Assembly (NCBI GenBank): GCA_937930175.1
Contig: CALGLP010000013.1
Location: 267,764-331,763, forward strand
DNA: 64,000 nucleotides
Direction: 5' to 3'
Source: an uncultured bacterium
Lineage (GTDB): Bacteria > Omnitrophota > Gorgyraeia > Zapsychrales > Aceulaceae
The position numbers and the translations under genes are program-made. Shown piece after piece: positions 32,688 through 51,609 of the stretch (positions are counted from its first letter, which is position 1; each line of letters begins with the position of its first letter). The notes beneath the pieces are model-generated. The model had not been told where the DNA came from, ran no database searches, and worked only from the letters and a program-made list of their open reading frames with translations.

Positions 32688-35600
32688 ATGCGTAGCACAA
32701 AGAACTTTTCTTGCAGGTCCAGACTGTCTCGTTGTCTATCCCTTATTGTATTGTTCCATTTTTTTGTGCTAAGCGCGATCCCTCCTGGGTATGCGCAAAG
32801 CGTTAGTCTGCCTGCAGTTGGCGCGCTTGTTCCTCTGAGCCCTGGCTTTCAGCCAGCGGTCTTGCGTGGCGTTCAGGTCGACCCCATCAAGCATCTGGAG
32901 CTTAAATTTATTGTTGATGGCGGGCAAAGCGGCTTAAAAGGGGAAAGCCTTGAAAAAGAGACTAAGGATCTTGTTAATTATTTCCTGGCCTCCTTGGCCA
33001 TTCCTGAAGATGATCTCTGGGTTAACCTCTCGCCTTATGAAAACGATCGCGTTGTGCCAACTAATTTAGGAAATACCGACATGGGCCGGGACCTTCTGGC
33101 CCAGGATTATCTTTTAAAGCAAGTCACGGCCTCCTTATTATATCCCGATGATGAACTCGGCAAAAAGTTTTGGAATACGATTTACAAAAAAGCCTACGCG
33201 CGCTACGGCACGACCAATATCCCCGTTAATACCTTTAATAAGGTCTGGATCCTGCCAGACACCGCGAAAGTGTATGAAGAAAAAGACCGCGCTATTATTA
33301 CCGAAGCCCGGATGAAAGTTATGCTCGAAGAGGATTATTTATCTAAAGAAAAGAATTTGGAAGTCGATAGTGATGGAAAGAATGATAAAACCGCGCAGTT
33401 GTCCTCTGAGATCATGCGCGAGGTCGTGATCCCTGAGATCGAAAAAGAAGTTAACGAAGGAAAGAATTTTGCCAAGGTTCGTCAGATCTATTATTCACTT
33501 GTGTTGGCGCATTGGTTTAAGACCAAGCTCAAAGGTGTTTTGCTTAACAAGATTTTTGCGGACATGTCCAAGGTCAAAGGTTTTGAAGCCAAGGATCCCA
33601 AGGAGATCAATAAGATTTATGATCAGTACGTAGCGTCGTTTAAAAAAGGCGTCTGTAATGTCTTGCGCATTGATTATGACACGAATGAAAAGAAGCATGT
33701 ACCAAGAAAGTATTTTTCAGGGGGTGTTGTTCTGGAGGTCGAAACCACGCCTGATACTGCCGCCAGTGCAATTACGGTATTGAAGAGGGCTGCAACGTTA
33801 ATGGTTGCCGCTTTTCTTTTTACATTTGCCTCCTTAACCACCAAGGCTGAAACCTCAAAATCTCTGGATCAGGGGGACAAGGCCACAACGATTGAGGCCA
33901 TAACGACAACACAATCGCAAGCGGAAGTGTATGACGCGACAGGGGAATTTACTGATTTTGAAGGCCCGCCCATGGATTCTCCGCTTTTGGATACAATCCA
34001 ACAAAATTTTCAACAATACAAACCTTTTCAGGCAGGGGATGTGATCCTGTCAGGCAGAGGTCAGTCTATTCTGGAGGTTGCTCAGGTTTTGCCCACAATG
34101 ATTACAAATAAAGGCCAGAAGATTAATGTCAATGTTTGCTGGGGAAAGTTAACCGAAAATGGAAATGTTCGCGAGGTCTTTTTTGTTCAGCTTCAAAATC
34201 CAAGCGCAAAATTTAATCAGGGACATATGACATATTCACATTCTTTACATGGTCTTATCAATGCGGCAAAGGCTGATCCAAGTTTTCGTCAGACCCTAGA
34301 AACTGCTTCAGGCAAGACGTTGCAGCAGCTAGAGGATGAGCTTACGCGCATCTCCGCCAAAGATGCGGTTTTGCAAGATCATTCTTTTATGAATATTAAG
34401 GGTATTGATAACACAAGAAAGATGGCGATTGGCGCTATTTGTTTTGTGGCTCAAGGGGACACTATTGTGCCGGTCATTATTCCTATCCATGGGCTTGATC
34501 CTATACCTTTTTTAGGTTGGGAGATGGGGATTAAAGCGATCATGACTCAATACAAGAGAGTTGAATCAATCGAAGTTTTAGGTGGCCACACTTTTAATGT
34601 TAAAGTCAATGGAAGCTGGCGTACTGTCTCTACCGCGCAAGGTCCGGATGCCGAAAACTTGAGCGGTGTTGTAAATTTGAGCCGAAATTTTATTCAGGAT
34701 TATTCTGCTGGAAATTTTAGTCCATGGGCTGCTGATGGTCAGAAGCTTCTTTTAGATTTTGCAGGTATTTCTCAGGCTGCAAACACGGCAACGCAAGAAG
34801 CTGATGGCACGATATCCGAGGTTCGGGATTTGGCGTCAGACTTGTCCCAGCGCGATAGCACGATTTTTAATATTTTGAATTTGGTCTTTCCAAATTTTCT
34901 TGAACAGATCAAACAGAAAGCTGATGAGTTTAATGCAAGCGCAAAGACAAATATTACAAGCGCTCAGGGTGACCTTCAAGATGCGTATAATCAAGCTCAA
35001 GCCGATATTAGTCAGGATCAGAAGCAGTTAGCCTATATCGGATTTCTCGCGCGGCTGCTTAACAATCCCTATGTCCAGAAACAAGGTGAGAGTTTTGTAA
35101 ATCAACTGGTCCAAAATAGCTATGCCCAAGCAGGTGGTGGTGTATTTGAGGCGGGAACAAATGCTCAGATTCAGGATGTCGTGAATCAAATTAACAGCAC
35201 TGGGGTAGAGTTTTCCAGAACAAATAGCGCAGGAAAGACAGAAACTTTTTCGTTAAATTTGCGCACTGTTGCATCCTTGCGTTATTTATTTTCGTTGGAC
35301 GCAGGTTTATTAGCCCAAGGCAAGGTGACTTTTGATGAAACAACAGAAAATCTTTTGATGGAGCTTAACGAGGAAGCCAATGGCACTGTTTCTCAAGGGT
35401 TATTGACACTTTTTGAAGATCTTGGAAACCTTGATACTTCAGGTTTGCAGGAAGTTTTTAACAAGATTATGGCTGGCCCATCGCAGGGCAAGGTTGAAGG
35501 TCAGGTTGATATGGGGCTTTTTATTAAAGGCCTTGTGGGTGGATTCCAGACGGCTTGCGGTGAATTTGGCTGGAAGGGCGAGGTTAAGGGTTTACCGATG

Positions 35601-37721
35601 ATCAATGTTAATGTTTTTGGTGGAGCCGGCGGTTATGGTCTTGCAACCGGAACTGTAGACGTCAAGATCCATACCCAGGCAGAGATTGAGGCTCTTTTAG
35701 AGGAAAGTAAGCTATCCGGAAATCTTAGCGCAGCTATTACGATGGAGGGGGGTGCCAAAGCCTATGTCCTCTCTGGGACCAGCACGAATGCGGGCGCGCA
35801 AGTTTTCTTACCAGACCAAGGGATTTCTTTTGTGATCAATTATAACGCTACAGGCGAAACGCAGATATTTAAGTATGCTAATGTTAAGATGGACGGTGGT
35901 TTTTCAGTGAACGAACAAGGAGTTATCGGGATCGACATTAAGGCAAATGTTGAATATGCTGTTGATAAAGATCTTGTCACAAACGATTTTTCCTATAGCT
36001 CGAATTTTGATTTGGGAGGAATTATTAAAAATTTGCCGGGGGATGTTATTAATAAGCTCAATGCTTGGGCCAATCAGCAGCAGATAGGCCTTGATTTCTG
36101 GACATATCTAAAGATTAACTGTGATTTTGCCAGCGCATATAATAACTTTGTGCCGGGTAGTCAGAACTGGAAAGAAGGAATCAAGAATCTTCTTACGGGT
36201 GTTAATACGCAATATGGGTTGCAGGAAGTTTTAGATGTGATCGAGATGGCTTTAAGAGATTCCTATGCCCAAGCTGAGATCGATCAAGTCTTGAAAGAAA
36301 TTTCTGATGAGTGGCAGAAAAAGGTTGATGAGATTAATAGTGAGTGGCAAAAAGGTGTTAAGAAAAGTGATCGCGAGATGACACAGGTAACAAAGACCAC
36401 TTATTTTGCTTTCGAATTTCTAAAGAATTTTGTCTATGGTAAGGGCAAGGGTTTTACCACTGTTAAGATCGGCGTTGGCGGGCCTTCTGCGGGGGTCACG
36501 GTAACAACCGGAGGAACCCTGAATGCTGGGAAAGTTAATCTTTCAGGTTCGATTCAATTGAATGCTGCTACTAGCCGCGCGGTTGATCAAGCTGCTAGCC
36601 AATCATTTATAGATTATAAAACTGTTCTTGCAAGCTGGAATATTGGCCAAAAAGATTGGTTAAAAATTGTATCTGATGTTAATCGCATTACTAACGAAAC
36701 CATCAAGGATGGAACATTTTATGATAACATCGAACGTGTTCGCTTGGCGCTTGATCAGGGGCTTGCGAATGTTGATTCAACGGTTCGCATTTGTGCGATT
36801 GCAGCGTTGATCAACAATCCTCAATGGCGACAATCTTACAATCTTGATGTCCGTCAGCTAGAAGCTAATGCCTTTGGCCTTGTTAAGGTACAGGCAAGAA
36901 CTGAAAATGGAAAATTTGCAGGGTCTCTGAGTGTCGAAAATTATTGGGAGGGAGATCAGGGCTTTGCTCCCTACATTGGCATTGGGGGAAGTTGGAATCT
37001 TGAAAAAAAGAAGATCTTGATGTCTGCGGCAGTTTATTTTGATCCCATGCTTGGATTTACAGGCGCGGGATTGCAGTTAAATTTAGACGGAGGCCAGATC
37101 AATGTAAAATTTGAACAAAAGATAACCAAGGTTGGGGTTCAGCTAAAGATTGAGCCATTTTACAAGATGATCAAGGGCAAGGCAAAAGGTCCCATGACAA
37201 TGCTTTACAACAGAAAAGGAGCAGGCATCTATGATCAAAAAGGAGAGCTCCTGAGTTATGTTCCGCTTACTTCAGATCAGGCCAAAGAAATATTTGGTGG
37301 TACCACGGCTAAGTATGGAAAGATAGAGATCAAAGGATCGCATCAAGCTGAAAGAAAAGCGGCTCGAAATAAGATTGTAAATGATGTTCTTGATCTGATG
37401 ATCGAGCAGGAGATGGATGACGTTGGTGTGACGCCAGCTACCGCAGAGTCTGCTTCCACAAATGATGGGATTGCTGATGCGTCACCGACAGCGCCTAGTT
37501 CAAGCGAAAAGCAAAAAGACTTCACTAAGGGTGGTATTGCCTTTGATTCCCGCAAGATCGACATGCAGATCGAGGGCACAGGATTAGAATTTGATTTTCC
37601 GGATAATCTGATCACCGATGAGATGCGTAATCTGATGGGGCTTGTTCCTCAGATCATTAATTTTCAACCTGTCACAAACCCGTATCAATTGCTTGGGCCA
37701 TTGGCCAAAATGGAGGAATAA
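32688..37721 (+). CDS. giant secreted hypothetical protein (1677 aa)
   Basis: Continuous ORF. The N-terminus has a hydrophobic segment ending ...VLSAIPPGYAQS. No known catalytic domain recognised. Confidence 0.7.
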   Translation: MRSTKNFSCRSRLSRCLSLIVLFHFFVLSAIPPGYAQSVSLPAVGALVPLSPGFQPAVLRGVQVDPIKHLELKFIVDGGQSGLKGESLEKETKDLVNYFLASLAIPEDDLWVNLSPYENDRVVPTNLGNTDMGRDLLAQDYLLKQVTASLLYPDDELGKKFWNTIYKKAYARYGTTNIPVNTFNKVWILPDTAKVYEEKDRAIITEARMKVMLEEDYLSKEKNLEVDSDGKNDKTAQLSSEIMREVVIPEIEKEVNEGKNFAKVRQIYYSLVLAHWFKTKLKGVLLNKIFADMSKVKGFEAKDPKEINKIYDQYVASFKKGVCNVLRIDYDTNEKKHVPRKYFSGGVVLEVETTPDTAASAITVLKRAATLMVAAFLFTFASLTTKAETSKSLDQGDKATTIEAITTTQSQAEVYDATGEFTDFEGPPMDSPLLDTIQQNFQQYKPFQAGDVILSGRGQSILEVAQVLPTMITNKGQKINVNVCWGKLTENGNVREVFFVQLQNPSAKFNQGHMTYSHSLHGLINAAKADPSFRQTLETASGKTLQQLEDELTRISAKDAVLQDHSFMNIKGIDNTRKMAIGAICFVAQGDTIVPVIIPIHGLDPIPFLGWEMGIKAIMTQYKRVESIEVLGGHTFNVKVNGSWRTVSTAQGPDAENLSGVVNLSRNFIQDYSAGNFSPWAADGQKLLLDFAGISQAANTATQEADGTISEVRDLASDLSQRDSTIFNILNLVFPNFLEQIKQKADEFNASAKTNITSAQGDLQDAYNQAQADISQDQKQLAYIGFLARLLNNPYVQKQGESFVNQLVQNSYAQAGGGVFEAGTNAQIQDVVNQINSTGVEFSRTNSAGKTETFSLNLRTVASLRYLFSLDAGLLAQGKVTFDETTENLLMELNEEANGTVSQGLLTLFEDLGNLDTSGLQEVFNKIMAGPSQGKVEGQVDMGLFIKGLVGGFQTACGEFGWKGEVKGLPMINVNVFGGAGGYGLATGTVDVKIHTQAEIEALLEESKLSGNLSAAITMEGGAKAYVLSGTSTNAGAQVFLPDQGISFVINYNATGETQIFKYANVKMDGGFSVNEQGVIGIDIKANVEYAVDKDLVTNDFSYSSNFDLGGIIKNLPGDVINKLNAWANQQQIGLDFWTYLKINCDFASAYNNFVPGSQNWKEGIKNLLTGVNTQYGLQEVLDVIEMALRDSYAQAEIDQVLKEISDEWQKKVDEINSEWQKGVKKSDREMTQVTKTTYFAFEFLKNFVYGKGKGFTTVKIGVGGPSAGVTVTTGGTLNAGKVNLSGSIQLNAATSRAVDQAASQSFIDYKTVLASWNIGQKDWLKIVSDVNRITNETIKDGTFYDNIERVRLALDQGLANVDSTVRICAIAALINNPQWRQSYNLDVRQLEANAFGLVKVQARTENGKFAGSLSVENYWEGDQGFAPYIGIGGSWNLEKKKILMSAAVYFDPMLGFTGAGLQLNLDGGQINVKFEQKITKVGVQLKIEPFYKMIKGKAKGPMTMLYNRKGAGIYDQKGELLSYVPLTSDQAKEIFGGTTAKYGKIEIKGSHQAERKAARNKIVNDVLDLMIEQEMDDVGVTPATAESASTNDGIADASPTAPSSSEKQKDFTKGGIAFDSRKIDMQIEGTGLEFDFPDNLITDEMRNLMGLVPQIINFQPVTNPYQLLGPLAKMEE

Positions 37722-37750
37722 ACTTTTTTAAAAAAAAGGAGTAGAGAAAA

Positions 37751-40700
37751 ATGAACCACGCCACGGTTTTCTCGAAAAATAAGTTTGTTGTCAGAATAGT
37801 TACATTGATCGTTTTCATAAATTTCATGATCCCTCCTCAGGTCATTTCCGCGTCGCAAGCAAATCTTAAGAGTTTTAGCCGTAATGCCGCATCCTCGAAA
37901 GCGCTTGCTGTGGCTGTTAAAGAAACCACACCTAGTCGTATTCCGGAGTCTTTTTTTAGTGATCGCAAGGATGAGTCTCGAGGCAGCACTAAAGGACCAG
38001 GATCACGCGCATGGAATGATGGAGAGAAGATCGTTGCCTTTGATGGCGTGGCTCAAGATTATTTTGGTTACGCGGTGGCGATTTCCGGGGATACGGCTGT
38101 TGTTGGTATGCCTCAGGATGATGACAACGGGATCAATTCCGGATCTGCGTATATTTACACGAAAACTGGCGATCAGTGGCTTTATAGTCAAAAGATCAAA
38201 GAAGGCGTAACGCAAGATTTTTTTGGTCGTGCCGTAGCCATTGACGGCGATACGATTGTCGTGGGGGCTCCTTTAGAGGATGAAAATGGGAGTAAAGCCG
38301 GTGCGGCCTATATTTTTAAAAAGCAGGTAAATGGCTTATGGATTAAGGTTCAGAAAATCACGGCTTCGGACGGGGAGGCTGAAGATGAATTTGGAGTATC
38401 TGTTTCTATTTCTGGAGACAACGTTGTTGTGGGAGCTCATTTTTATAGTGATTCTTATTTACGCTGTGGAGCGGCATATGTTTTTAAGAAAAATGGTGAT
38501 ACATGGGCGCAAGTAGACAAGCTTCTGGCCCCTGATCGGGCGGAAGCTGATTATTTTGGAGAGTCAGTTTCAATCTCGCAAGATACAGTGATCGTAGGCG
38601 CCCACAGAGATGATGATAACGGCTTGGAATCTGGCTCGGCTTATATTTTCGTAAAGAATGCTTCTTCTGGTCTGTGGCCGCTTCAGCAGAAGGTAGTTCC
38701 AGCAGACGGGGCCACGAATGATGCCTTTGGTTCCGCGGTTTCTGTGTATCAAGACACGGCGATCATCGGCGCGCATCTTGATGATGATAAGGGTGAGGAC
38801 TCAGGATCTGCTTATGTTTACAAAAGAAACGGGAACAGTTGGTCATTTTTTAACAAGCTTTTGGCCTTAGATGGCGCCGTAGAAGATTATTTTGGTTCGG
38901 CTGTATCGATGAGCAACGGGTCTGCGATCGTTGGCGCTCGGTATCATAATGACCCTGAATTGGACCGCGGGGCTGCGTATATTTTTGATGAAGGTTTAAA
39001 TTGGACTGAGACTAAGGAGCTTTTGGCCGGTGATGGGGCGAAAGATGATTATTTTGGGTGGTCTGTTGGCATTAGTGATAATGTTACTATCGTTGGGGCT
39101 TGGGGAGATGATGATCTCGGTTCAAAGTCAGGATCGGCGTATATTTTTACCAACACTCCTGCGCCAAATACTTACACCATTACCGTTAAGACCGATGACA
39201 CCGAAAATGCCTTGGTTAGAAATTTATCTAATAACGAGGTAGGAGAAAGTCTTGTTTATCCGGTCGTTGCAGGGCAACCGTTTAACGGCACTTTTCTCGC
39301 TGAGCCGCCTGCGACTCATGTTTTCAAAGATTGGACCAACGCCAGTCCCAGCTTTGCTAATCCGATTGATATATCCATTGATCCGGTTGAGCAGGATGTT
39401 ACGATTACAGCTAATTTTGTTTTGAAGCAAGTGACGGTTTTTGGCACGATCAAAGATCAAAACGGCCAGGCGATTGCCAATGCGCAATTGTTGAGGACTG
39501 TTAACGGGGTCGCTCAGCCTGCGATCAATGTTCCTAACATTAATTATTTTTTTAGTGTATCTCCCGGCGACACAGTTGCGATAACACCTGTTGCCGGCGG
39601 TAAGGTTTTTCCTGCAGGCTTAGCGGATAATCCAAACTGGTCAGGTGTGGTGAACGCCAACGTTAACAAAGATTTTATCGGGATCAATTATGGCTATGTC
39701 AATGTTTCCGGTACGGTCAAGGATCAGGATGGCCAGGCGATCCCTGTGGCCAAGTTAAACGTCACGATCAACGGGATCCTTCAAATTATTAATGTTCCTA
39801 ATATCAATTATTCTTTTGCTGTTCATGCTGGGGATCAGGTTTCGGTAACGCCCGCTGCGGTGAACTATGATTTTCCTGCAGGGCTCGCGGATAATCCTAG
39901 CTGGGCAGGCATGGTCTTGGCTAATGTCACTAAAAATTTTGTAGGCGTTGCCAATACTTTTACCTTGACCTATTTGGCGGGTCCCGGGGGAAGCATCAGC
40001 GGGCCGACGCCCCAAACGGTTGCCTATGGGCAAAACGGACAGCCGGTCGTGGCGGTGCCCAACCCAGGATATCATTTTGTCAAATGGAGCGACAATGTTA
40101 TGACGGCCGCACGCCAGGAGCTCAATGTCACTGCCGATCTGACAGTCACGGCGTATTTTGAAATTGATCAATTCACTGTCTCCGGCCAGGTGCGGCTCAA
40201 TGGTGCTGGCCAGCAGGGAGTGTCTATCGGATATTCAGACAACCAGACCAAGGATTTTATTCTTCTGGACACCACCGATGATAACGGCAATTATTCGTTT
40301 ACCTGCAATTATGGATTCACCGCGGATGTGTACGCGGTGGATGGGGTACATACCTATAGCCCAACCCATTACAGCTATGTCAACCTTAGTCAGAGCTATG
40401 TAAACAGGAATTATATTGCTGTTGATACCTTCACTGTCTCCGGCCAGGTGCGGCTAAACGGCACGGGCCAAGAAGATGTAGTTATTGGATACTCAGATAA
40501 CCAAACCAAGAATTTCATTCCTTTAGACACAACCGATGAGAACGGCAACTACTCGTTTACTCGCAATTATGGTTTTACCGCAGATGTGTACGCGGTGGAT
40601 GGGGTACATACCTATAGCCCAACGCATTATAGTTATGTCAATCTTAGTCAGAGTTATGCTAATAAAGATTATGTTGCTGTTGATACTTTCACTATATCCG

Positions 40701-43042
40701 GCCAGGTACGGTTAAATGGTGCTGGACAGCAGGGAGTGTCTATCGGCTATTCAGATAACCAAACCAAGAATTTCATTGTTCTGGATACTACCGATCAGAA
40801 CGGCAACTACTCGTTTACTCGCAATTATGGTTTTACTGCGGACGTTTACGCGGTGGACGGGGTACATACCTATAGCCCAACGCATTACAGCTATACCAAT
40901 CTCAATCAGAATTATGTAAATAGGGATTATGATGCTTTTGATATGTTTAATATCATCGTCAAGACCGATGGCACAGAAGGCGCTTTAGTTGAGAACATTC
41001 AGACAGGAGAACAGGGAACGTTACTGTCTTATCCTGTGGAGTATAACGATCCATTTTATGGAGAGTTTAACGCTCTTGCGCCAGAAGGCTATGAGCTCGT
41101 GAGATGGGAAAATGACATGAAGGGTGATGGCAATTTGCTCATCATCGATATTGATCATGTGACTAAGAATGTCACCTTTACAGCGATCTTCGCCCTCAAG
41201 AAGTTTACGTTAACGTATTTAGCCGGCCCAGGCGGTACGATCAAGGGCCCAACTCCCCAAACGGTGAATTATGGAGGGGACGGTAAGCCGGTGAGGGCTG
41301 TAGCGGACCGTAGCCATCATTTTGTTAATTGGTCTGATGGCTCAGTCGAGAACCCAAGGCAGGATCTTAATGTCACAGAGGATATTACGGTCACGGCGAA
41401 CTTTGAGCAGAATATTGTTTTATATAATTTAATAGTCAATAGTGGCAGCGGAAGCGGGCAATACGAGGCCACCACGGTTGTCCCGATCGAGGCTGACCCA
41501 GCGCCACAAGGCCAGGAATTTGACCAATGGATAGGGGATATTGCGCACGTCAAGGATCCAATGTCCGCCAGCACGCAAGTCACCATGCCGGCCAATGATG
41601 TGGAGGTGACAGCGACGTATAAGCCAATCATGTACACCGTTATTGTTAAAACTGACGGCACAGAAGGCGCTTTAGTTGAGAATATTGAGACAGGAGAACA
41701 GGGAACGTTATTGTCTTATCCTGTGGAGTATAACGATCCATTTTATGGAGAGTTTAACGCTTTTGCGCCAGAAGGCTATGAGCTCGTGAGATGGGAAAAT
41801 GACATGAAGGGTGATGGCAATTTGCTCATCATCGATATTGATCATGTCACCAAGGATGTCACCTTTACCGCGATTTTTGCTAAAAAGCAATTTACCTTAA
41901 CCTATCTGGTTAATCCTCTAGAAGGAGGAACGGTAAGCTTAGCCAGCGAAGTTGTCACGTATGGTGAGAATGGTTCTCTGGTTTATGCCACAGCCAATCC
42001 AGGGTATCAGTTCACAGGTTGGAGCGGGGATGTTAACACAACAGAAAACCCTTTGCAAATCATCAATGTCACGCAGGATATGACCGCGGTGGCGAACTTC
42101 GCGCCTTTGGCTACCCACACTATTACCATTAAGACCGATGGCCTGGAAGGTGCCTTGATCAGGGATATGGATTCAGCGCTTGAATTGCCAGAGCATATTT
42201 TTACAGTTTATGATGGCTATAGCTTTAATGGGAATTTTGAAGCCTTGCCACCTGAGAGTTATGCCTTTGCCAAGTGGACGGGATATGACATTGTTGATCC
42301 TGAGAACCCTGTCTTGGAGTTAAGCCTTAACAATGTGACAGAAGACATTACGATCACGGCAAACTTCACGTTGAAATCATATAAAGTTTATGGGCATGCT
42401 TATATTACTTCAGTCGCGGGCGATAAAAAAGATGGTAGTGATGGGTCTATCTATATGCCGTTTATTGGCGGAGAAGTTGTGACGGTCGATCCCGATACCT
42501 GGGATATCATTGAACATACAGGCGTGATGACCGATGAACAGGGGTATTTTGAATTGTATAAGTCTGCCGGCTGGAGTGGGAGTATCGCATTATACCGTCC
42601 TGCGACAGGCACGGTTTTGTTTGCGCACATGGCAACCGGGCAGCCTTTGGGCCCTACAGCTATTCCGTCCCTTAGCGGAGATTACTTTGTTTATAATTAT
42701 ACACAATACGAAGAACCTGAAGACCCAAGTCAAATTTGGTTTTTGGGAAGTCCATTTGCGATATACCCTGTCGTGACGGGAAGGGTTGTGGATGAGAATA
42801 ATAATCCTGTGCAAGGAGTTGAGATAGATAATTTAGCGGACCCAGGCCCTGTTTACACCAATGAAAATGGTGAGTATTCTATTGAGCTTATAATGTTTCA
42901 TTATGAGCTTTGGGCAGATATTCAGCCTTCATTTCCGGGGGCTACGTTTACTCCGCAGGTGAGACATCTTCAGCCGCTTGATCGGGATTTTATGAATCAG
43001 GATTTTGTGATGCATTCAGCGGATCAAGGAAAGAAGAAGTAG
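37751..43042 (+). CDS. giant secreted protein (1763 aa): FG-GAP-like repeats, CarboxypepD_reg-like domains, Listeria-Bacteroides (InlB B-type) repeat domains, and a conserved C-terminal module
   Basis: Seven or more units of DYFG.SV.ISGD...VGA..DD..G..SGSAYIF (integrin-alpha FG-GAP pattern). Repeated ...GYHFVKWSD / GYQFTGWSG units of the List_Bact_rpt type. N- and C-termini are homologous to the 43196 protein. Confidence 0.8.
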   Translation: MNHATVFSKNKFVVRIVTLIVFINFMIPPQVISASQANLKSFSRNAASSKALAVAVKETTPSRIPESFFSDRKDESRGSTKGPGSRAWNDGEKIVAFDGVAQDYFGYAVAISGDTAVVGMPQDDDNGINSGSAYIYTKTGDQWLYSQKIKEGVTQDFFGRAVAIDGDTIVVGAPLEDENGSKAGAAYIFKKQVNGLWIKVQKITASDGEAEDEFGVSVSISGDNVVVGAHFYSDSYLRCGAAYVFKKNGDTWAQVDKLLAPDRAEADYFGESVSISQDTVIVGAHRDDDNGLESGSAYIFVKNASSGLWPLQQKVVPADGATNDAFGSAVSVYQDTAIIGAHLDDDKGEDSGSAYVYKRNGNSWSFFNKLLALDGAVEDYFGSAVSMSNGSAIVGARYHNDPELDRGAAYIFDEGLNWTETKELLAGDGAKDDYFGWSVGISDNVTIVGAWGDDDLGSKSGSAYIFTNTPAPNTYTITVKTDDTENALVRNLSNNEVGESLVYPVVAGQPFNGTFLAEPPATHVFKDWTNASPSFANPIDISIDPVEQDVTITANFVLKQVTVFGTIKDQNGQAIANAQLLRTVNGVAQPAINVPNINYFFSVSPGDTVAITPVAGGKVFPAGLADNPNWSGVVNANVNKDFIGINYGYVNVSGTVKDQDGQAIPVAKLNVTINGILQIINVPNINYSFAVHAGDQVSVTPAAVNYDFPAGLADNPSWAGMVLANVTKNFVGVANTFTLTYLAGPGGSISGPTPQTVAYGQNGQPVVAVPNPGYHFVKWSDNVMTAARQELNVTADLTVTAYFEIDQFTVSGQVRLNGAGQQGVSIGYSDNQTKDFILLDTTDDNGNYSFTCNYGFTADVYAVDGVHTYSPTHYSYVNLSQSYVNRNYIAVDTFTVSGQVRLNGTGQEDVVIGYSDNQTKNFIPLDTTDENGNYSFTRNYGFTADVYAVDGVHTYSPTHYSYVNLSQSYANKDYVAVDTFTISGQVRLNGAGQQGVSIGYSDNQTKNFIVLDTTDQNGNYSFTRNYGFTADVYAVDGVHTYSPTHYSYTNLNQNYVNRDYDAFDMFNIIVKTDGTEGALVENIQTGEQGTLLSYPVEYNDPFYGEFNALAPEGYELVRWENDMKGDGNLLIIDIDHVTKNVTFTAIFALKKFTLTYLAGPGGTIKGPTPQTVNYGGDGKPVRAVADRSHHFVNWSDGSVENPRQDLNVTEDITVTANFEQNIVLYNLIVNSGSGSGQYEATTVVPIEADPAPQGQEFDQWIGDIAHVKDPMSASTQVTMPANDVEVTATYKPIMYTVIVKTDGTEGALVENIETGEQGTLLSYPVEYNDPFYGEFNAFAPEGYELVRWENDMKGDGNLLIIDIDHVTKDVTFTAIFAKKQFTLTYLVNPLEGGTVSLASEVVTYGENGSLVYATANPGYQFTGWSGDVNTTENPLQIINVTQDMTAVANFAPLATHTITIKTDGLEGALIRDMDSALELPEHIFTVYDGYSFNGNFEALPPESYAFAKWTGYDIVDPENPVLELSLNNVTEDITITANFTLKSYKVYGHAYITSVAGDKKDGSDGSIYMPFIGGEVVTVDPDTWDIIEHTGVMTDEQGYFELYKSAGWSGSIALYRPATGTVLFAHMATGQPLGPTAIPSLSGDYFVYNYTQYEEPEDPSQIWFLGSPFAIYPVVTGRVVDENNNPVQGVEIDNLADPGPVYTNENGEYSIELIMFHYELWADIQPSFPGATFTPQVRHLQPLDRDFMNQDFVMHSADQGKKK
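40172..40945 (+). repeat. 3 x 258-bp in-frame tandem repeat (86-aa CarboxypepD_reg-like unit) inside the 1763-aa gene
   Basis: Unit starts at 40172, 40430 and 40688 (TTCACTGTCTCCGGCCAGGTGCGGCT...). Confidence 0.8.
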
Positions 43043-43057
43043 GGAGAGGCTATAAAA

Positions 43058-43086
43058 GGGCGGCCCCGCCGTTGGCGGGGCTGCCC
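43058..43086 (+). terminator. GC-rich hairpin GGGCGGCCCCGCC-GTT-GGCGGGGCTGCCC
   Basis: 13-bp stem directly after the stop. No strong U-tract. Confidence 0.5.
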
Positions 43087-43195
43087 AATTCAAGAACAAA
43101 AATGTATGACTCAAAACTTGCATAAAAGAAAGGGATATCACCCTCACCCATAACCCAGGCCTTGAAAGAGGCCTAAACAAAAGGAGCAGAGAGAA

Positions 43196-45160
43196 ATGAA
43201 CTACGCCACGGTTCTCTCGAAGCACAAGGTTGTTGTTCGGTTAGTCACGTTAGTTGTTTTCTTGAATTTTGCCATCCCGCCGCAAGCTATTTCCGCGGCA
43301 CAGTCCCAATCCCAAGCCTTTAAGCGTAATGTTGCCCCGGCGAAAGCGCTTGCCACGTCAGACCAGGAGAAAGCTAATAACCGCATTCCGGAGGAGTTTT
43401 TTGATAGTTCTTCTGGAGATGACGATTTTGGCGATGGTAAATTGACCGAGTTTGTGATCAATGGGAACTTTGAAACACCGACAAGTTTTACTCCGCCGAT
43501 ATATGACCCCTACATGCCTTTTGCTTTCGATGAGGTGTACGCTTGGCAGGATTCCCATGGCACTCCCCAAATTAAGCCATATTTTAAAACCGAGCCTGAT
43601 CATTATGCTCAGCTTGTAACTCTTTGCGATTCTAACCATCATAAAGGTGAAGGTATTTTTGCGAACGTTGCTCTAGTGTCTGGCGAAGAATATGTTTTGC
43701 AATTTAATTATAAGCTTGTGGAGTCAGAGATGACTTCACCGAGGAACGATCTTTTTATTTGTCTGTTCAACGCTGATCCGCCAGGACTTTCTGGGTCCAA
43801 CCAGGAGCCAGTACCAGCCGTAATGACTCCTGAAGGTGGAGCGATCAATATTTATGAAGCATATGCGCTTGCGCCAGACGCCCAGTGGCATACTGCTAAT
43901 GTAACTTTTACAGCGCCGACCGATGTGAACTATATCAAGCTGGGTATCTATGGTAAGTCGGATGGCTCAATCACGTACTCTAAGATAAATATTTTAATTG
44001 ATGATGTCAGTATTACCCCACAGGGGAATGTTATCACCGTCCAAACCGATGGCACGCTAGGTGCTGAGGTTAAAAACATCCTGACTGGTGAGCAGGGAGC
44101 AATATTAACCTACAATGTAGCCGAAGGCGATCCATTTTATGGAGAGTTTGATCCCCTGCCTCCAGCAAGCCATACCTTTAAGGGATGGAAATGGGAGGCG
44201 TCTGATGATCCAACGCTCATAATTGACATCAAGAACGTTACGGAGAATGTCACGGCGACTGCGTTATTTGAGATCAAGAAGCTCACCTTGACCTACACCG
44301 CGGGAGCTGGTGGTCGCATTAAGGGTCCAAGCCCGCAAGTCATTCCTTATGGCAATGACGGCAAGCCGGTGACGGCTGTACCGGATAACCAGCATCAGTT
44401 TGTCAATTGGAGCGATGGGTCCACCATGAACCCGCGCCACGATCTTGATGTCACGGCCAATATTGATGTTGTGGCAAACTTTGAACCTATTGTGCAAAAC
44501 TATAAGGTTTCCGGGTATGCCTATATCAATTTTCTCTGGGATAAGGACGAGGGGCAAAAAGATTATTCGGGATTTATCCCATTTATTGGCGGAGAGATCG
44601 TTGTGATCGATCCCAAGACCCAAGAGATCATTGAGAATTTAGGCATTGTCACCGATGAGCAGGGATATTTCGAGTTTACCAAGCCTGCGCATTGGAGCGG
44701 TTCGATAGCTGTTTATCGTCCGGCTAATGGTCAGATCCTCTTTGATTTCGTCCTCCTTTATCCGTTGAATTATATTGCTGACTTAACGGCTGATACCTTG
44801 ATCTATAACTTTGATACAACCGGGATCGGAGGGCATTTACCTCAGAAAATTTGGCATATCGGTTATTTCAATATGGAGCCGTATATTACAGGCAAGGTTA
44901 CTGATGAGCAGGGTAATCCTGTGGCGGGTGTGAAAATTAATAGCTGGGGAACATCAAGCAGTTATTACACCGATGAACAGGGAGAATATAAGTATCCATT
45001 TATTATGTTTCATCCTGAGCTTTGGGAAGTCGTTACGCCTGAAGATGATGATCCCAACACAGTCTTTGACCCACCGCAGCGAACACTTAAGCCGATGGAC
45101 CGGGATTATTATCATCAGGATTTTGTGATGATTACAGCGGATCAAGGAAAGAAGAAATAG
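43196..45160 (+). CDS. secreted protein (654 aa) with a List_Bact_rpt domain, paralogous at both termini to the 1763-aa protein
   Basis: N-terminus MNYATVLSKHKVVVRLVTLVVFLNFAIPPQAISAAQ versus MNHATVFSKNKFVVRIVTLIVFINFMIPPQVISASQ. The C-terminal 150 aa are homologous, and both end in ADQGKKK. Confidence 0.75.
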   Translation: MNYATVLSKHKVVVRLVTLVVFLNFAIPPQAISAAQSQSQAFKRNVAPAKALATSDQEKANNRIPEEFFDSSSGDDDFGDGKLTEFVINGNFETPTSFTPPIYDPYMPFAFDEVYAWQDSHGTPQIKPYFKTEPDHYAQLVTLCDSNHHKGEGIFANVALVSGEEYVLQFNYKLVESEMTSPRNDLFICLFNADPPGLSGSNQEPVPAVMTPEGGAINIYEAYALAPDAQWHTANVTFTAPTDVNYIKLGIYGKSDGSITYSKINILIDDVSITPQGNVITVQTDGTLGAEVKNILTGEQGAILTYNVAEGDPFYGEFDPLPPASHTFKGWKWEASDDPTLIIDIKNVTENVTATALFEIKKLTLTYTAGAGGRIKGPSPQVIPYGNDGKPVTAVPDNQHQFVNWSDGSTMNPRHDLDVTANIDVVANFEPIVQNYKVSGYAYINFLWDKDEGQKDYSGFIPFIGGEIVVIDPKTQEIIENLGIVTDEQGYFEFTKPAHWSGSIAVYRPANGQILFDFVLLYPLNYIADLTADTLIYNFDTTGIGGHLPQKIWHIGYFNMEPYITGKVTDEQGNPVAGVKINSWGTSSSYYTDEQGEYKYPFIMFHPELWEVVTPEDDDPNTVFDPPQRTLKPMDRDYYHQDFVMITADQGKKK

Positions 45161-45175
45161 GGAAGGTTAATAAGA

Positions 45176-45204
45176 GGGCGGCCCCGCCGCTGGCGGGGCC
45201 GCCC
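45176..45204 (+). terminator. GC-rich hairpin GGGCGGCCCCGCC-GCTG-GCGGGGCCGCCC
   Basis: Near-identical to the hairpin at 43058. Confidence 0.5.
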
Positions 45205-45360
45205 TTCAGAAAAAAGAAAATAAGAATGCATATCAACCACGCGCAAAAGAAATGAAGGGAAAGGAGGTGAGCTGATCTTAGTCTCTTCGTCAAGCGTCGG
45301 ACGCCATATAAAACCAAAAAGAACTTATTTTTAAAAAATACATAATACAAGGAGAAACTT

Positions 45361-47280
45361 ATGTATCGCCACGGAAAAATAAGGATGTTTGTTACTTTAG
45401 CAGTTGTTTTTATGTTTTTGATCATCGTTTGTTCTTTAGCAAGCGCGGAGGAAAAAGGAAATATTGCGATATCAGGCTTTGTCAAAGATGGTAACACTCC
45501 TGTCCAAGGAGTGACCATGACGGCCCTCGCCTGGCAGTTTCCAGCTAACTGGTATCCTATTGCTACAACAACGACTTCTTCAAGCGGTTATTATTCGCTT
45601 TCCATATCAACCACGATAGGGCTTTTTAAAGTTGTGCCGACAAAGCCAGGTTATTATTTTGGGCCGATAGATCGTCAATACCACGGCAGCGTTGGTAACC
45701 AATCTAATCAAAATTATGTGGTTTTGTCCTTGCGTCAAGGTCCAACCATGGAAGGGCTTAGTTTGAGTAGCTCGGATTGGGGGGATTACAATAATGACGG
45801 GCTCTTGGATTTGGCTGTCTGCGGTCAGTTGTCTAATGGACAGAGAGTGTTACGCGTTTATCGTGCTGTTTTGAGCGCAGGGGGCGGTATTAGTTTTGTT
45901 CAAGCTCTTTCTATGTCAGGGCCGACAAGCGGCAAGGTTGCTTGGGTCGATTATAATAACGACGGTGATCTGGATTTGGCTGTTACCGGATATGGCATTG
46001 GCAACTATTATGTAAAGATGTATAGAAATCTTAATGGTTCGTTTAGTTTTAACAGCGCTGCGTCTATCTCTTCACCAAAAGCGATGAATGTTAGTACCTT
46101 TGCGTGGGGTGATTTTGATCATGATGGCGATGTGGATGTGGCTATTGCCTGTGAATTGAGAGATAGCTGGGGACAGTATTTAAAAATCTTTAAAAATAAT
46201 GCTGGATCATTTTTATATTCGCAAGATTTATTAACCTCAACATCAACTGGTGGAATAGGTTTGGCTTTTGCCAGTCTTGCTTGGGGGGATTATGATAGGG
46301 ATGGTGATCTGGATTTAGCTGTATGCGGAAGAACATACAAGTGGACTAATCCTTCATATGGATGGGGTTCACTGACGGCAATCTTTAATTATAATGGTCA
46401 GAATGGATTGTTTTCTAAAGCTAACATAAGCACTTTAATCAATGTTGAAGAAGGCTCGATTGCTTGGGCTGACTTTGATAATGATGGAGATTTGGATCTC
46501 GCGGTTGCAGGCTGGAATCGAGACGCGAATAAGGCGAGATTCTGTGCTTATCGTAATGATCTACAGCCAGGGGGGCCTTATAATGAATTTACCCTTGTCG
46601 CAGATTTTCCAGGTTTTAAACAGTCCACTCTCACGGTTGGCGACGTTAATGCTGATGGTAAGATTGACATTGCTGTTCAGGGAAAACTGCAAGATGGGAC
46701 GCCAACCACCCGTGTTTATAAGAACAGAGGTAATTTTTGGTTTGAAGATGCCCAAACTCAACTACCAGGCGTTTATAATGGGTCTATTGCTTTCGCTGAT
46801 TATGATGATGATGGAAGGCTAGATTTGGTCTCGACCGGTGTTTTGGCTTCAAATGGAAGAATTTGTAACGCTTACAAGAATCTTCGTCTTTTTGAAGCTG
46901 GTAACACCGCGCCTCAGGCTCCTGCACAATTAGTCCAGACTATTAATACTGGAGATAATAGCGTTAAGCTTCAGTGGAGTCAGGGTTCTGATGCACAGAC
47001 TAATTTTCAAGGGTTAAGCTACAATCTTTGCGTGGGAACAAATCCGACCAGCTGTGATATTGTTTCGCCATTATCTCAAGCAGATGGTGAAAGACAAGTA
47101 GCTGCTGTGGGCTCGATCGCGCACAAGACAGAACCTCTTAACTATTGGCACTTAAATGGCCTTCAGGGAGGAGCTGCTTATTATTGGAAAGTGCAGGCGA
47201 TCGATCCTGGATTAACGGGCTCAGCGTTTTCAGCCCAGAAATCGTTTTATTTGCCGAGTAAGGGGAAAATTGGGAAATAG
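45361..47280 (+). CDS. secreted FG-GAP/VCBS-like repeat protein with a C-terminal fibronectin type III domain
   Basis: Signal peptide. Seven or more WGDYNNDG(D/L)LDLAV-type repeats. FN3-like (VKLQWSQGSD...YYWKVQAID). Confidence 0.75.
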   Translation: MYRHGKIRMFVTLAVVFMFLIIVCSLASAEEKGNIAISGFVKDGNTPVQGVTMTALAWQFPANWYPIATTTTSSSGYYSLSISTTIGLFKVVPTKPGYYFGPIDRQYHGSVGNQSNQNYVVLSLRQGPTMEGLSLSSSDWGDYNNDGLLDLAVCGQLSNGQRVLRVYRAVLSAGGGISFVQALSMSGPTSGKVAWVDYNNDGDLDLAVTGYGIGNYYVKMYRNLNGSFSFNSAASISSPKAMNVSTFAWGDFDHDGDVDVAIACELRDSWGQYLKIFKNNAGSFLYSQDLLTSTSTGGIGLAFASLAWGDYDRDGDLDLAVCGRTYKWTNPSYGWGSLTAIFNYNGQNGLFSKANISTLINVEEGSIAWADFDNDGDLDLAVAGWNRDANKARFCAYRNDLQPGGPYNEFTLVADFPGFKQSTLTVGDVNADGKIDIAVQGKLQDGTPTTRVYKNRGNFWFEDAQTQLPGVYNGSIAFADYDDDGRLDLVSTGVLASNGRICNAYKNLRLFEAGNTAPQAPAQLVQTINTGDNSVKLQWSQGSDAQTNFQGLSYNLCVGTNPTSCDIVSPLSQADGERQVAAVGSIAHKTEPLNYWHLNGLQGGAAYYWKVQAIDPGLTGSAFSAQKSFYLPSKGKIGK

Positions 47281-47338: not shown

Positions 47339-47375
47339 GGGCTGACCCCGCCAACAGCGGGGTCAGCCCTTCTTA
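47339..47375 (+). terminator. intrinsic terminator GGGCTGACCCCGC-CAACA-GCGGGGTCAGCCC followed by TTCTTATATTT
   Basis: 13-bp stem plus a T-rich tail. Confidence 0.65.
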
Positions 47376-49030: not shown

Positions 49031-49396
49031 ATGGCAATTCAAAAGTGTGAAGACTTAGAGGTTTATGCGTTGGCGTTTGATGCTGCAATGAGAATTTTTC
49101 AGCTAATAAAAGAATATCCAAAAGAAGAGACATACTCTTTAGTGAATCAGATAAGAATGTCGTCGAGGTCGGTCGCTGCCAATATTCGTGAAGGGTATGC
49201 TAAAAGAAAGTATCCAGATGTTTTTGTTAAGCATCTTAATGATGCGCTTGGATCGTCAGAAGAAACAGTAACATGGATCGATTTTAGTTGTCAGTGTGGT
49301 TATTTGCCAGAGAAGCAAGCAGTTGTTCTTAAGAAGACATATGCTTCCATTGGCGCTATGCTTTATCAATTGATGAAAGGGTGGCAAAAGTTTTAA
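49031..49396 (+). CDS. four-helix-bundle protein (TIGR02436 family), copy 2
   Basis: LEVYALAFDAAMRIF...LVNQIRMSSRSVAANIREGYAKR...LGSSEET. Confidence 0.8.
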   Translation: MAIQKCEDLEVYALAFDAAMRIFQLIKEYPKEETYSLVNQIRMSSRSVAANIREGYAKRKYPDVFVKHLNDALGSSEETVTWIDFSCQCGYLPEKQAVVLKKTYASIGAMLYQLMKGWQKF

Positions 49397-50229: not shown

Positions 50230-50610
50230 ATGCCGATTAAATGCTGCAAAGACTTGGAAGTGTACAATCGTTCGTTTCAAGTGGCGATGGTCATCTTTGA
50301 GAAAACCAAAATTTTTCCAGCTGAAGAGAAGTATTCTTTAGTTTCTCAGATTTTAAGATCGTCGCGTTCTGTTTCGGCAAACATTCGAGAAGGATATGCA
50401 AAGCGAAAATATCCAGATGTATTTGTAAGACATTTAAATGATGCTCTGGGTTCATCAGAAGAAACACAAACGTGGTTAGACTATTGTGAATCTTGCAGAT
50501 ATCTCGATCAGTTGACTTGTAAAAGATTAATAAAAGAATATGAGGAAATTTCAGCCATGCTTTTTGTTTTAATGAAATCGTGGCAGAAATTTGAGAAATC
50601 TAACGTCTAA
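50230..50610 (+). CDS. four-helix-bundle protein (TIGR02436 family), copy 3
   Basis: About 60% identical to copy 2 (LEVYNRSFQVAMVIF...SSRSVSANIREGYAKRKYPDVFV). Confidence 0.8.
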   Translation: MPIKCCKDLEVYNRSFQVAMVIFEKTKIFPAEEKYSLVSQILRSSRSVSANIREGYAKRKYPDVFVRHLNDALGSSEETQTWLDYCESCRYLDQLTCKRLIKEYEEISAMLFVLMKSWQKFEKSNV

Positions 50611-50640: not shown

Positions 50641-51609
50641 ATGACCGAATCTCCACTTTTTTGGCCAGCGAAATTTGAAGGCAAGACATTGCTTGTCCTT
50701 GATGAGACGCTGTTACCGGAAAAGATGTGCTATGTCAAAGTTCAGAATGTTGCGCAAGCCGTCAAGGTTATTCGTGAGATGAAGACCCGCGCCTTTGGCC
50801 AGTTTTTAGTTGTGCTAAGCACGTTTTTATTGGTACTTAAGAAAAATAAGACATGGAATGATGAGAAATTGATGGCTGAATTGCAAAAGACAGCCCAAGC
50901 CCTTAATGCTAGCCGTCCAACATTTCCGTTTGCAGAAGTAACTGGTATGATTATTGGTTGGGCTAAGAAAGACATGGAAAGTCATGTGCCTTTGCAGGTC
51001 GTGCTTCCTAAAAAGATCGATGGTTTCCTGCAAGGTATCCGTGGACGTCGTTTGGAGCGTGTACAAAGAATCGCGGATGTCTTGATGCAATATAATAATA
51101 TTTTAACGCATTGTAATGTGAGCGGCGAGCTCGCCATGGCAGCACAGCTTTGCAAGGCCAAGGGCAAGGAAATCAATTTCTTTGCAACGGAAACGCGTCC
51201 CTATTTTCAAGGTGCTAAATTAACGTGTTGGGAGCTCAATCGGGTCAAGGCACATGTCACGCTCGTTGCGGATAACGCTGTTGGAACGCTGTTGCGTGAT
51301 CATATGATTGATGCCGTGGTCATGGGATCCGATCGATCATGCGCCAACGGAGATGTCGCTAATAAAATTGGCAGCTATCAAATTGCTGTTGTGGCTAAAG
51401 AATTTGGCGTTCCAGTGTATGTGTTGACGCAGCCCTCGAATAAGATTCCAGCTGGCGCTGATATTCCCATTGAAGTGCGCCATGAAGACGAGCTTTTAAA
51501 ATTTAAGGGTAAGCGCATTACGCCAAAAGGCGTGAAGGGTTTTTATCCAGGGTTTGATGTTATTCCCAATAATCTAATCACACAAGCGATTGCCATCAAT
51601 GTTAATTGA
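50641..51609 (+). CDS. mtnA: eIF-2B alpha/beta/delta-family isomerase (S-methyl-5-thioribose-1-phosphate / 5-deoxyribose-1-phosphate isomerase, MtnA-like)
   Basis: ATETRPYFQGAKLTCWEL...VADNAVG...VMGSDRSCANGDVANKIGSY matches the MtnA / IF-2B family core. Confidence 0.7.
   Translation: MTESPLFWPAKFEGKTLLVLDETLLPEKMCYVKVQNVAQAVKVIREMKTRAFGQFLVVLSTFLLVLKKNKTWNDEKLMAELQKTAQALNASRPTFPFAEVTGMIIGWAKKDMESHVPLQVVLPKKIDGFLQGIRGRRLERVQRIADVLMQYNNILTHCNVSGELAMAAQLCKAKGKEINFFATETRPYFQGAKLTCWELNRVKAHVTLVADNAVGTLLRDHMIDAVVMGSDRSCANGDVANKIGSYQIAVVAKEFGVPVYVLTQPSNKIPAGADIPIEVRHEDELLKFKGKRITPKGVKGFYPGFDVIPNNLITQAIAINVN

Follow-up and report, generated by a model that had tools for sequence, protein, structure and literature searches.

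Results

Two tandem genes with shared ends

We analysed a stretch of 64,000 nucleotides (nt) from an uncultured Omnitrophota bacterium (GenBank assembly GCA_937930175.1, contig CALGLP010000013.1, positions 267,764 to 331,763 of the forward strand), hereafter the window, in which four consecutive genes on the + strand encode large exported proteins of 1677, 1763, 654 and 639 amino acids (aa; Table 1). The subject of this work is the middle pair, the 1763-aa and 654-aa proteins, which share their first residues (the N-module) and their last domains (the C-module). A sequence-only reading of this DNA had compared such shared termini to the dedicated sorting or secretion signals PEP-CTERM, LPXTG and the C-terminal domain (CTD) of the type IX secretion system (T9SS), and we ask here what these termini are.

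BLASTP aligns the two proteins in three blocks: the N-terminal 82 residues (55% identity, E 3e-15), a middle block of 160 aa (58% identity, E 3e-50) and a C-terminal block of 368 aa (39% identity, E 4e-60), the final ~220 aa of which are ~50% identical. This likeness is far beyond chance, and it bears out the earlier description of the two as paralogs with shared termini around variable middles. The near-alike start, put at about 60 residues in the sequence-only reading, extends over the 82 residues of the first block; the C-terminal region, put at 150 aa, is indeed homologous and is really ~220 aa long; and both open reading frames (ORFs) do end in ADQGKKK. The middles are built from recognisable units. 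Pfam recognises CarboxypepD_reg in both proteins, accompanied in the 1763-aa protein by seven FG-GAP_2 repeats, likely a beta-propeller, and by InlB-type B-repeats (Flg_new_2, Flg_new), and in the 654-aa protein by Flg_new_2. This content is in keeping with the exported proteins of surface or adhesin type that had been proposed; from it we infer a surface or extracellular location and an adhesin function. The region found only in the 654-aa protein has just a sub-threshold Pfam match, to CBM_4_9_1 (E 0.24), and may be a carbohydrate-binding jelly roll. The 1763-aa gene also holds young internal duplications, three units of 258 nt at 40154-40963 that are 81-82% identical and a 264-nt pair (40955-41218 and 41642-41905) that is 91% identical, which would indicate that repeat expansion is ongoing.

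Table 1. Features of the four-gene block and of related loci. Positions are those of the window unless a related locus (L010, L012, L014; see below) is named; ↓ marks a predicted signal-peptide cleavage site; CBM, carbohydrate-binding module.
Feature	Position	Strand	Remarks
1677-aa gene	32688-37721	+	signal peptide …VLSAIPPGYA↓QS; conserved N-domain; GGIAF C-terminal motif
GGIxF motif	37527-37700; L012 781-5937, 25-552; L010 14994-15230 (-); L014 2953-3141		in the window at the C-terminus of the 1677-aa protein, GGIAF…PQIINFQPVTN
Candidate start-codon hairpin	37745-37774; 43190-43219; L014 2645-2674; L012 10211-10240		
1763-aa gene	37751-43042	+	ORF
Signal peptide, 1763-aa protein	37751-37855	+	residues 1-35: MNHATVFSKNKFVVR / IVTLIVFINFMIPP / QVISA↓SQ
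Post-signal linker, 1763-aa protein	37856-37966	+	residues 36-72; motifs FSRN and RIPESFF
Seven FG-GAP_2 repeats, 1763-aa gene	38012-39145 (approximate)	+	Pfam PF14312, E 9.8e-121
Variable middle, 1763-aa gene	39146-42376	+	InlB B-repeat/List_Bact_rpt units, 'KTDGTEGALV' unit, CarboxypepD_reg-like repeats
C-module, 1763-aa protein	42377-43042	+	residues 1543-1763; predicted two tandem beta-sandwich domains; tail ADQGKKK
GC-rich hairpin 3' of 1763-aa gene	43058-43086	+	13 bp; -32 kcal/mol, z -3.95
654-aa gene	43196-45160	+	ORF
Signal peptide, 654-aa protein	43196-43300	+	residues 1-35
Post-signal linker, 654-aa protein	43301-43411	+	FKRN … RIPEEFF
Region only in 654-aa protein	43448-44020	+	residues ~85-275; begins NGNFE; candidate CBM-like jelly roll
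KTDG unit and InlB B-repeat, 654-aa gene	44033-44491	+	58% identity to 1763-aa protein
C-module, 654-aa protein	44495-45160	+	residues 434-654; last residues ADQGKKK
GC-rich hairpin 3' of 654-aa gene	45176-45204	+	homologous to 43058-43086; -36.3 kcal/mol, z -5.7
639-aa FG-GAP_3 gene	45361-47280	+	own signal peptide …CSLASA↓EE; both shared modules missing
GC-rich hairpin	47339-47369		third hairpin of the gene block

A small family at syntenic loci

Patterns of the C-module run against 185,579 species genomes gave one true locus, in Candidatus Aceula meridiana (Omnitrophota; L002), where the downstream genes for an AMP-binding enzyme, PNP, IF-2B, aldolase, aldehyde dehydrogenase and radical SAM protein are syntenic with those of the window at 70-76% DNA identity. 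A profile of the module gave 1489 matches among 1.84e9 representative proteins, and both halves were covered only by P0001 and P0004; the remaining matches are confined to profile positions ~130-217, which is the generic CarboxypepD_reg repeat. A word-indexed search returned a single match, again P0001, which represents only part of a gene of 831 aa or more. Eight Sphingobacterium loci (L003-L009 and L013) were discarded as matching the generic CarboxypepD_reg core only, and short peptides clustered with the 1763-aa protein were set aside as unrelated clustering artefacts. These counts were obtained with a clustered protein set in which the 90% cluster that includes the 1763-aa protein has an unrelated 43-aa peptide as its representative and a 270-aa chimeric fragment stands for the 654-aa protein, and with DNA pattern scans that missed loci found by other routes. 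A search among cluster representatives can therefore overlook the family, and its negative results carry less weight than they seem to. The 1677-aa protein is also recorded in NCBI assembly GCA_036722365.1 and in ENA assemblies, and the 1763-aa and 654-aa proteins are listed for NCBI and ENA as well, on contigs of up to 336 kb.

The C-module is present at four further loci, and the N-module in L010_1427, L012 and L014. In L010 (GCA_028693815.1), P0004, annotated 'FG-GAP-like repeat-containing protein', is 955 aa long and combines a signal peptide of its own with FG-GAP_3, an FN3-like region and the C-module; adjoining it, the 1427-aa L010_1427 has the N-module, FG-GAP_2, B-repeats and a different C-terminus. 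In L012, an ortholog of the 1677-aa gene (52% identity) lies directly upstream of a 1370-aa ortholog of the 1763-aa gene (L012_1370), which keeps the C-module and has another signal peptide and a barely recognisable N-motif; downstream of it come a hairpin and then the start of a further gene with the N-module. Identity between L012_1370 and the 1763-aa protein is 43-64% throughout, and the termini are therefore not specially conserved. Three loci from three Joint Genome Institute (JGI) samples, L014, L015 and L001, have a C-module gene of at least 831 aa, an N-module remnant, a 62-aa ORF and then the AMP-binding gene, and synteny with the AMP-binding, PNP and IF-2B genes of the window is seen in both L002 and L014. 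The remnant is part of a decayed copy (L014 2653-3141; also in L001 and L015) with an in-frame stop in its signal peptide (after …FFNPTIPS), degenerate sequence and the 62-aa ORF, which carries GGIDL; over its first 81 nt the copy matches the 5' end of the 1763-aa gene at 90% identity, against only 68% for the neighbouring AMP-binding gene.

The family is small, and it sits at syntenic loci of a few related Omnitrophota (Ca. Aceula meridiana, GCA_028693815.1 and three metagenome populations) with 1-2 copies per locus. The N- and C-modules are not always together among these relatives. To the question of whether the shared termini are restricted to the two genes of the window, the answer is that they reach more widely, to the four C-module and three N-module occurrences listed above, yet stay within a narrow clade.

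The N-terminal module

The shared N-terminus reads as a Sec-type signal peptide of ~35 residues followed by a linker. A basic n-region (K9, K11, R15) precedes a hydrophobic core of ~14 residues (16-28), two prolines and then Q-V-I-S-A↓S, with cleavage predicted after I-S-A; the call rests on inspection of the sequence and a hydropathy scan and is heuristic. The n/h/c layout, helix-breaking prolines, small-x-small site and lack of a lipobox Cys are those of ordinary substrates of signal peptidase I. The transmembrane (TM) check that the sequence-only reading had suggested for the N-termini was made with the same hydropathy scan, and the signal peptide is the sole hydrophobic segment in both the 1763-aa and the 654-aa proteins. 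Unlike typical Sec peptides, those of this family are rather long (35 residues), are followed by a conserved short linker motif and are unusually conserved, partly at the nucleotide level, between the paralogs (71% protein identity) and across three related genomes. Two other classes of signal were ruled out: the prepilin type by the lack of a G/FxxxE motif, and a lipoprotein by the lack of a Cys near the cleavage site. The signal variants YSIRK, KxYKxGKxW and ESPR (TIGR01168, TIGR03715, PF13018) gave no Pfam or NCBIfam match.

Behind the signal peptide lies a low-complexity linker of ~35 residues with two short conserved motifs, FxRN and RIPExFF, which are also found in L010_1427. In P0004 the linker motif is weak (FSRN…KIPNEFF), with an E of 0.019 in an independent profile search among ~4000 sequences. 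The 88 N-terminal residues found nothing among 5.8e9 proteins, and a metagenome scan with the RIPExFF pattern was likewise empty. It had also been suggested that the 1677-aa neighbour shares an 'IPP' feature with this N-terminus. The letters are there, but they are not conserved, the family having IPG in L010 and IPS in L012 and L014, and we dropped the link on finding IPP absent in these relatives. A proline ahead of the cleavage site is generic in signal peptides.

The start codons of both genes may lie in a hairpin. A GAGAAAA stretch 3' of the Shine-Dalgarno sequence (GAGAGAA in the 654-aa gene) can pair with codons 6-8, UUUUCUC (UUCUCUC in the 654-aa gene), to form a stem of 7 bp and a loop of 16 nt that holds the AUG. 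The stem is kept in four of four sequences (28 of 28 cells paired, with one compensatory change from A-U to G-C), a degree of conservation that is not significant (128 of 500 shuffles). Such a hairpin might explain the silent-site identity of codons 4-8 (GCC ACG GTT YTC TCG) across three genomes.

The C-terminal module

The C-module is predicted to be a folded tandem pair of CarboxypepD_reg/CnaB-like (transthyretin-like) beta-sandwiches. In the 1763-aa protein its second domain matches PF13620 at residues 1675-1718 with 40.8 bits against a cut-off of 32.3; in the 654-aa protein the matches are borderline for PF13715 (32.2 against 32.2) and below the cut-off for PF13620 (31.0 against 32.3). Pfam does not recognise the first domain, the profile of which matches the TDxxGxYxF…W.G core of CarboxypepD_reg-type repeats in many proteins. 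An AlphaFold2 model from a 49-row alignment is all-beta, with two domains and a mean pLDDT (predicted local distance difference test) of 80.4. Its best Foldseek matches in the PDB are tandem CnaB-type domains of SpaA, GBS52, BcpA, TIE and SdrD B (E ~1e-6), with a TM-score of only ~0.3 that we ascribe to inter-domain geometry. A sequence search of the PDB with the module found the transthyretin-like domain of carboxypeptidase M and the N-terminal domain of SusC. The conserved DRDFxxQDFxM of the module has its counterpart in the '…QDF…' with which every such repeat ends in other proteins (for example in P0005), and the same CarboxypepD_reg domain type is repeated in the middle of these proteins. 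It is a domain type found in thousands of other bacterial surface proteins.

The hydropathy scan finds no C-terminal membrane helix in either protein, and the tails are hydrophilic. On the strength of the model and these matches, the C-module is most likely a structural stalk or base. It resembles the CarboxypepD_reg/CnaB stalk domains of SpaA, GBS52, BcpA and the SdrD B-repeats in the Pfam match of its second domain, in its structural matches and in the recurrence of the same repeats in the middle of the protein. It differs from CnaB-type stalk domains in a first domain too divergent for Pfam and in having no invariant Lys, so that an isopeptide bond is not indicated; an isopeptide-bonded pilin was ruled out on this ground. 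Unlike the Gram-positive pilin and adhesin CnaB proteins, the family has no sortase motif, and its host is a diderm bacterium of the Planctomycetes-Verrucomicrobia-Chlamydiae (PVC) group.

The ADQGKKK tail

The paralogs are ~59-64% identical in DNA over most of their shared blocks (~59% in the rest of the C-module) and 73% identical in the signal-peptide region. Over the last 25 codons identity stands at 79% (80% at third positions), and it continues at 79% for 60 nt past the stop codon, through a GC-rich hairpin of 13-15 bp. The result is a duplicated 3' unit, 42968-43103 against 45086-45221, with the hairpins inside. ADQGKKK is encoded in a 22-nt identical run, the longest between the two genes. 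In the relatives the tails read EERKIE (L014/P0001), SEQKNE (L002), DQMNTE (L012) and KKKGSSQNEKK (P0004). Because DNA identity extends beyond the stop codon and the tails of relatives differ, the shared ADQGKKK would be a by-product of duplication or conversion of the 3' unit, and we do not take it to be a conserved peptide signal.

Some C-module tails are thus Lys-rich (ADQGKKK, KKKGSSQNEKK) and others acidic. Short Lys/Arg-rich tails also end neighbouring exported proteins that have no C-module, namely …SKGKIGK (window 47260-47280) and …PAIKKR (L010 14760-14784).

Known sorting and secretion systems

A Pfam search of essentially all larger ORFs of the 64-kb window found no sortase, exosortase or rhombosortase and no component of a T9SS (PorU/V/K-N, SprA) or of a type II, type I or type V secretion system (T2SS, T1SS, T5SS). 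The Pfam content is that of housekeeping genes (thyA, folA, PPDK, sigma-70, molybdopterin biosynthesis, AMP-binding, PNP/IF-2B/class II aldolase, KAS), and the co-occurring processing enzyme or secretion genes that a dedicated signal had led the sequence-only reading to look for are missing from the window. The same reading had noted that the termini match none of PEP-CTERM, the T9SS CTD or LPXTG, and this was confirmed: no sorting-signal model matches the proteins in NCBIfam (E<=0.1) or Pfam (E<=0.01), thresholds that apply throughout this section, and there is no C-terminal TM helix.

The family has in common with PEP-CTERM/exosortase and LPXTG/sortase substrates that similar termini are carried by variable surface proteins. 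Those systems require three elements at the very end of the protein (a short motif, a TM helix and a basic cluster), whereas the tail of this family is hydrophilic and variable and has no TM helix; we found no PEP motif, no C-terminal hydrophobic segment and no match to TIGR02595 in NCBIfam, and neither an LPXTG motif nor a TM helix in the last 50 residues. The T9SS CTD (Por_Secre_tail, TIGR04183/PF18962) is likewise a C-terminal beta-sandwich on large secreted repeat proteins with Sec signals. Unlike it, the C-module is about twice as large, has two domains and matches neither TIGR04183 nor TIGR04131 (NCBIfam) nor PF18962 (Pfam), and there are 1-2 members per locus against tens per genome in T9SS. 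No T9SS CTD is among the top 50 Foldseek matches in the PDB. No T9SS is known from the host phylum. As to type I secretion, the proteins have an N-terminal signal peptide and a C-terminus that the model shows as folded, and there are no matches to RTX (repeats in toxin) or to ABC transporter and membrane fusion protein families. As to type V, Pfam finds no PF03797, PF05860 or PF03865/POTRA in the 1763-, 654- or 1677-aa proteins, and only ~35 aa lie between the signal peptide and the start of the propeller in the 1763-aa protein.

The 1677-aa neighbour and its GGIxF motif

The 1677-aa protein has no sequence match in Pfam, NCBIfam or the PDB, and it has a hydrophobic segment at residues 362-380. 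Its gene and the 1763-aa gene are probably co-transcribed, being separated by a gap of 29 nt with no hairpin inside. It ends in a motif of ~55 aa, GGI(D/A)(F/L)…G..(I/L)(E/N)F(D/N).P…G(F/L)(V/I)P.(I/V)(I/V).(I/F).P(V/I).N, which we call GGIxF. The motif is also carried by the L012 ortholog, by another L012 ORF, by the 62-aa ORF of L014 and by a giant protein of at least 4041 aa in L010, in which it is preceded by an FHA-like segment and which has nothing else in common with the 1677-aa protein. In four of the four loci examined it adjoins FG-GAP/C-module genes. No Pfam family corresponds to it, and a word-indexed search gave only three short matches. As a candidate for a common C-terminal tag, GGIxF would be preferable to the C-module, and it may be a new C-terminal localisation domain.

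Other features of the locus

Each gene of the block had been credited with its own GC-rich terminator. A hairpin follows three of the four genes, the exception being the 1677-aa gene; the hairpin behind the 1763-aa gene has no clear U-tract, and no Rfam family matches within 32-48 kb of the window. The 639-aa neighbour had been described as an FG-GAP/FN3 protein. Pfam (E<=0.01) finds FG-GAP_3, FG-GAP and CarboxypepD_reg in it, which upholds the FG-GAP part of the description, and finds no FN3. With the middle of P0004, a protein that carries both modules, it shares 28% identity.

All long ORFs of the window (1-64000) are on the + strand, GC skew is positive in every 2-kb interval and the cumulative skew rises monotonically, features consistent with a long co-oriented leading-strand stretch. 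Two small genes of PF05635 ('23S rRNA-intervening sequence protein'; 49031-49396 and 50230-50610) are interspersed with the PNP, IF-2B-family and class II aldolase genes. At the corresponding positions in Ca. Aceula meridiana the ORFs are directly consecutive, and in L014 a GIY-YIG gene stands in place of the first. Two overlapping adjacent IF-2B-family ORFs, 50641-51609 (322 aa) and 51590-52084 (164 aa; part of the domain only), occur as a pair in L002 and L014 as well.

Discussion

We favour, with a probability of about 0.7, the explanation that the 1763-aa and 654-aa genes are tandem paralogs and belong to a small family of modular, Sec-exported, adhesin-like proteins that is restricted to one clade, and that their termini are ordinary parts of such proteins, with no new sorting tag. 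Under this explanation the N-terminus would be a cleavable Sec signal peptide with a linker of ~35 residues bearing two short motifs, the C-terminus would be a stalk-type double beta-sandwich of the CarboxypepD_reg superfamily inherited by duplication, and the 3' unit of tail and hairpin would have been homogenised by duplication or local gene conversion. The idea of a dedicated sorting signal in the manner of PEP-CTERM, the T9SS CTD or LPXTG is not supported by what was found: an N-terminus that reads as an ordinary Sec peptide, domains predicted to be folded, a variable tail, and 1-2 copies per locus where many cargo proteins per genome would be expected. Several observations weigh against the explanation that we favour. 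The N-motif and C-module are kept on different middles, an FG-GAP_2 propeller in one case, a possible CBM-like region in another and FG-GAP_3 with an FN3-like region in P0004, and a functional targeting or anchoring cassette would look the same. Both gene ends are somewhat more conserved at the nucleotide level than their surroundings. The size of the family is also a lower bound because of the cluster-representative blind spots and the loci missed by DNA pattern scans.

It is also conceivable, if unlikely, that the modules are lineage-specific localisation determinants, which an envelope partner recognises after Sec export so as to retain or translocate different 'payloads' by one route; candidates for this partner are the 1677-aa protein, probably co-transcribed, and a type II-like secretion system. 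Termini that stay the same while the middles change, as in the 1763-aa protein, the 654-aa protein and P0004, are what such a model would lead one to expect, and the N-module also stands on L010_1427 in front of a different C-terminus. A homolog of the 1677-aa protein lies directly upstream, at a gap of 14-29 nt, in both loci with a visible upstream side, and a GGIxF-motif protein is adjacent in L010, with a remnant in L014. Giant surface proteins of Omnitrophota have been reported next to T2SS-like loci (10.1101/2023.11.21.568195), which lends the model some further support. However, there are only 1-2 carriers per locus, and the modules are not an obligatory pair, since L012_1370 has the C-module behind another signal peptide and L010_1427 has the N-module and no C-module. 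Conservation of the C-module does not exceed that of the rest of the protein, the window holds no secretion genes, and the 1677-aa protein matches no known transporter family (Pfam, NCBIfam, PDB). A more specific form of the model, in which FxRN…RIPExFF and the C-module are cassettes of an Omnitrophota-specific surface-display route with the 1677-aa protein as partner and GGIxF perhaps as a localisation domain, strikes us as more doubtful still.

Another model takes the conserved ends as recombination handles, so that gene conversion between the tandem paralogs would swap their middles and diversify a surface antigen or adhesin. The tandem arrangement, the raised nucleotide identity at the 3' end (79%) and in the signal-peptide region (73%) against 55-63% elsewhere, the young internal repeats of the 1763-aa gene and the decayed copy with its N-module remnant in L014, L001 and L015 are all compatible with it, and the 1763-aa gene resembles, at its 5' end, the downstream-gene copies of L014 (88%) and L012 (80%) more than its own paralog (75%). 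But with a longest identical run of 22 nt and ends that are 73-79% identical, the copies are too dissimilar for efficient homologous recombination now, and there are only two of them; neither a silent cassette array nor a gene for a recombinase or invertase lies nearby. The pattern is that of conversion now and then in the past, not of a working variation system, and we regard this model as very improbable. Lastly, a C-terminus belonging to a divergent form of a known system (PEP-CTERM/exosortase, LPXTG/sortase, T9SS CTD, T1SS signal or T5SS barrel) might be suspected from a conserved C-terminal region on large secreted repeat proteins and from the small beta-sandwich of the T9SS CTD, but with no C-terminal TM helix, no LPXTG or PEP motif, no NCBIfam or Pfam sorting model, top Foldseek matches to CnaB-type pilin and adhesin domains and not to T9SS CTDs, a Sec signal that argues against T1SS and no barrel domain detected, it is scarcely credible and already largely refuted here.

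The explanation by paralogous, Sec-exported, adhesin-like proteins places the family beside other exported proteins of its phylum. Large Omnitrophota proteins have been proposed to mediate adhesion to host or prey cells (West-Roberts et al. 2023, 10.1101/2023.11.21.568195; Seymour et al. 2023, PMC10066038), and the proteins of the window resemble these in phylum, in being large and exported and in having attachment-type domains. They differ from them in size (0.65-1.8 against >10 thousand aa) and domain set, in having no TM arrays and no SecA-like or peptidase domains, and in that no T2SS-like locus is adjacent in the window. As it stands, the finding matters little: it describes a modular adhesin-like family private to one clade of an uncultivated phylum thought to live attached to other cells, with striking shared ends that can be explained without new sorting machinery. 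If the modules or the GGIxF motif were to prove to be localisation signals, however, they would bear on how Omnitrophota deliver large surface proteins across a diderm envelope.

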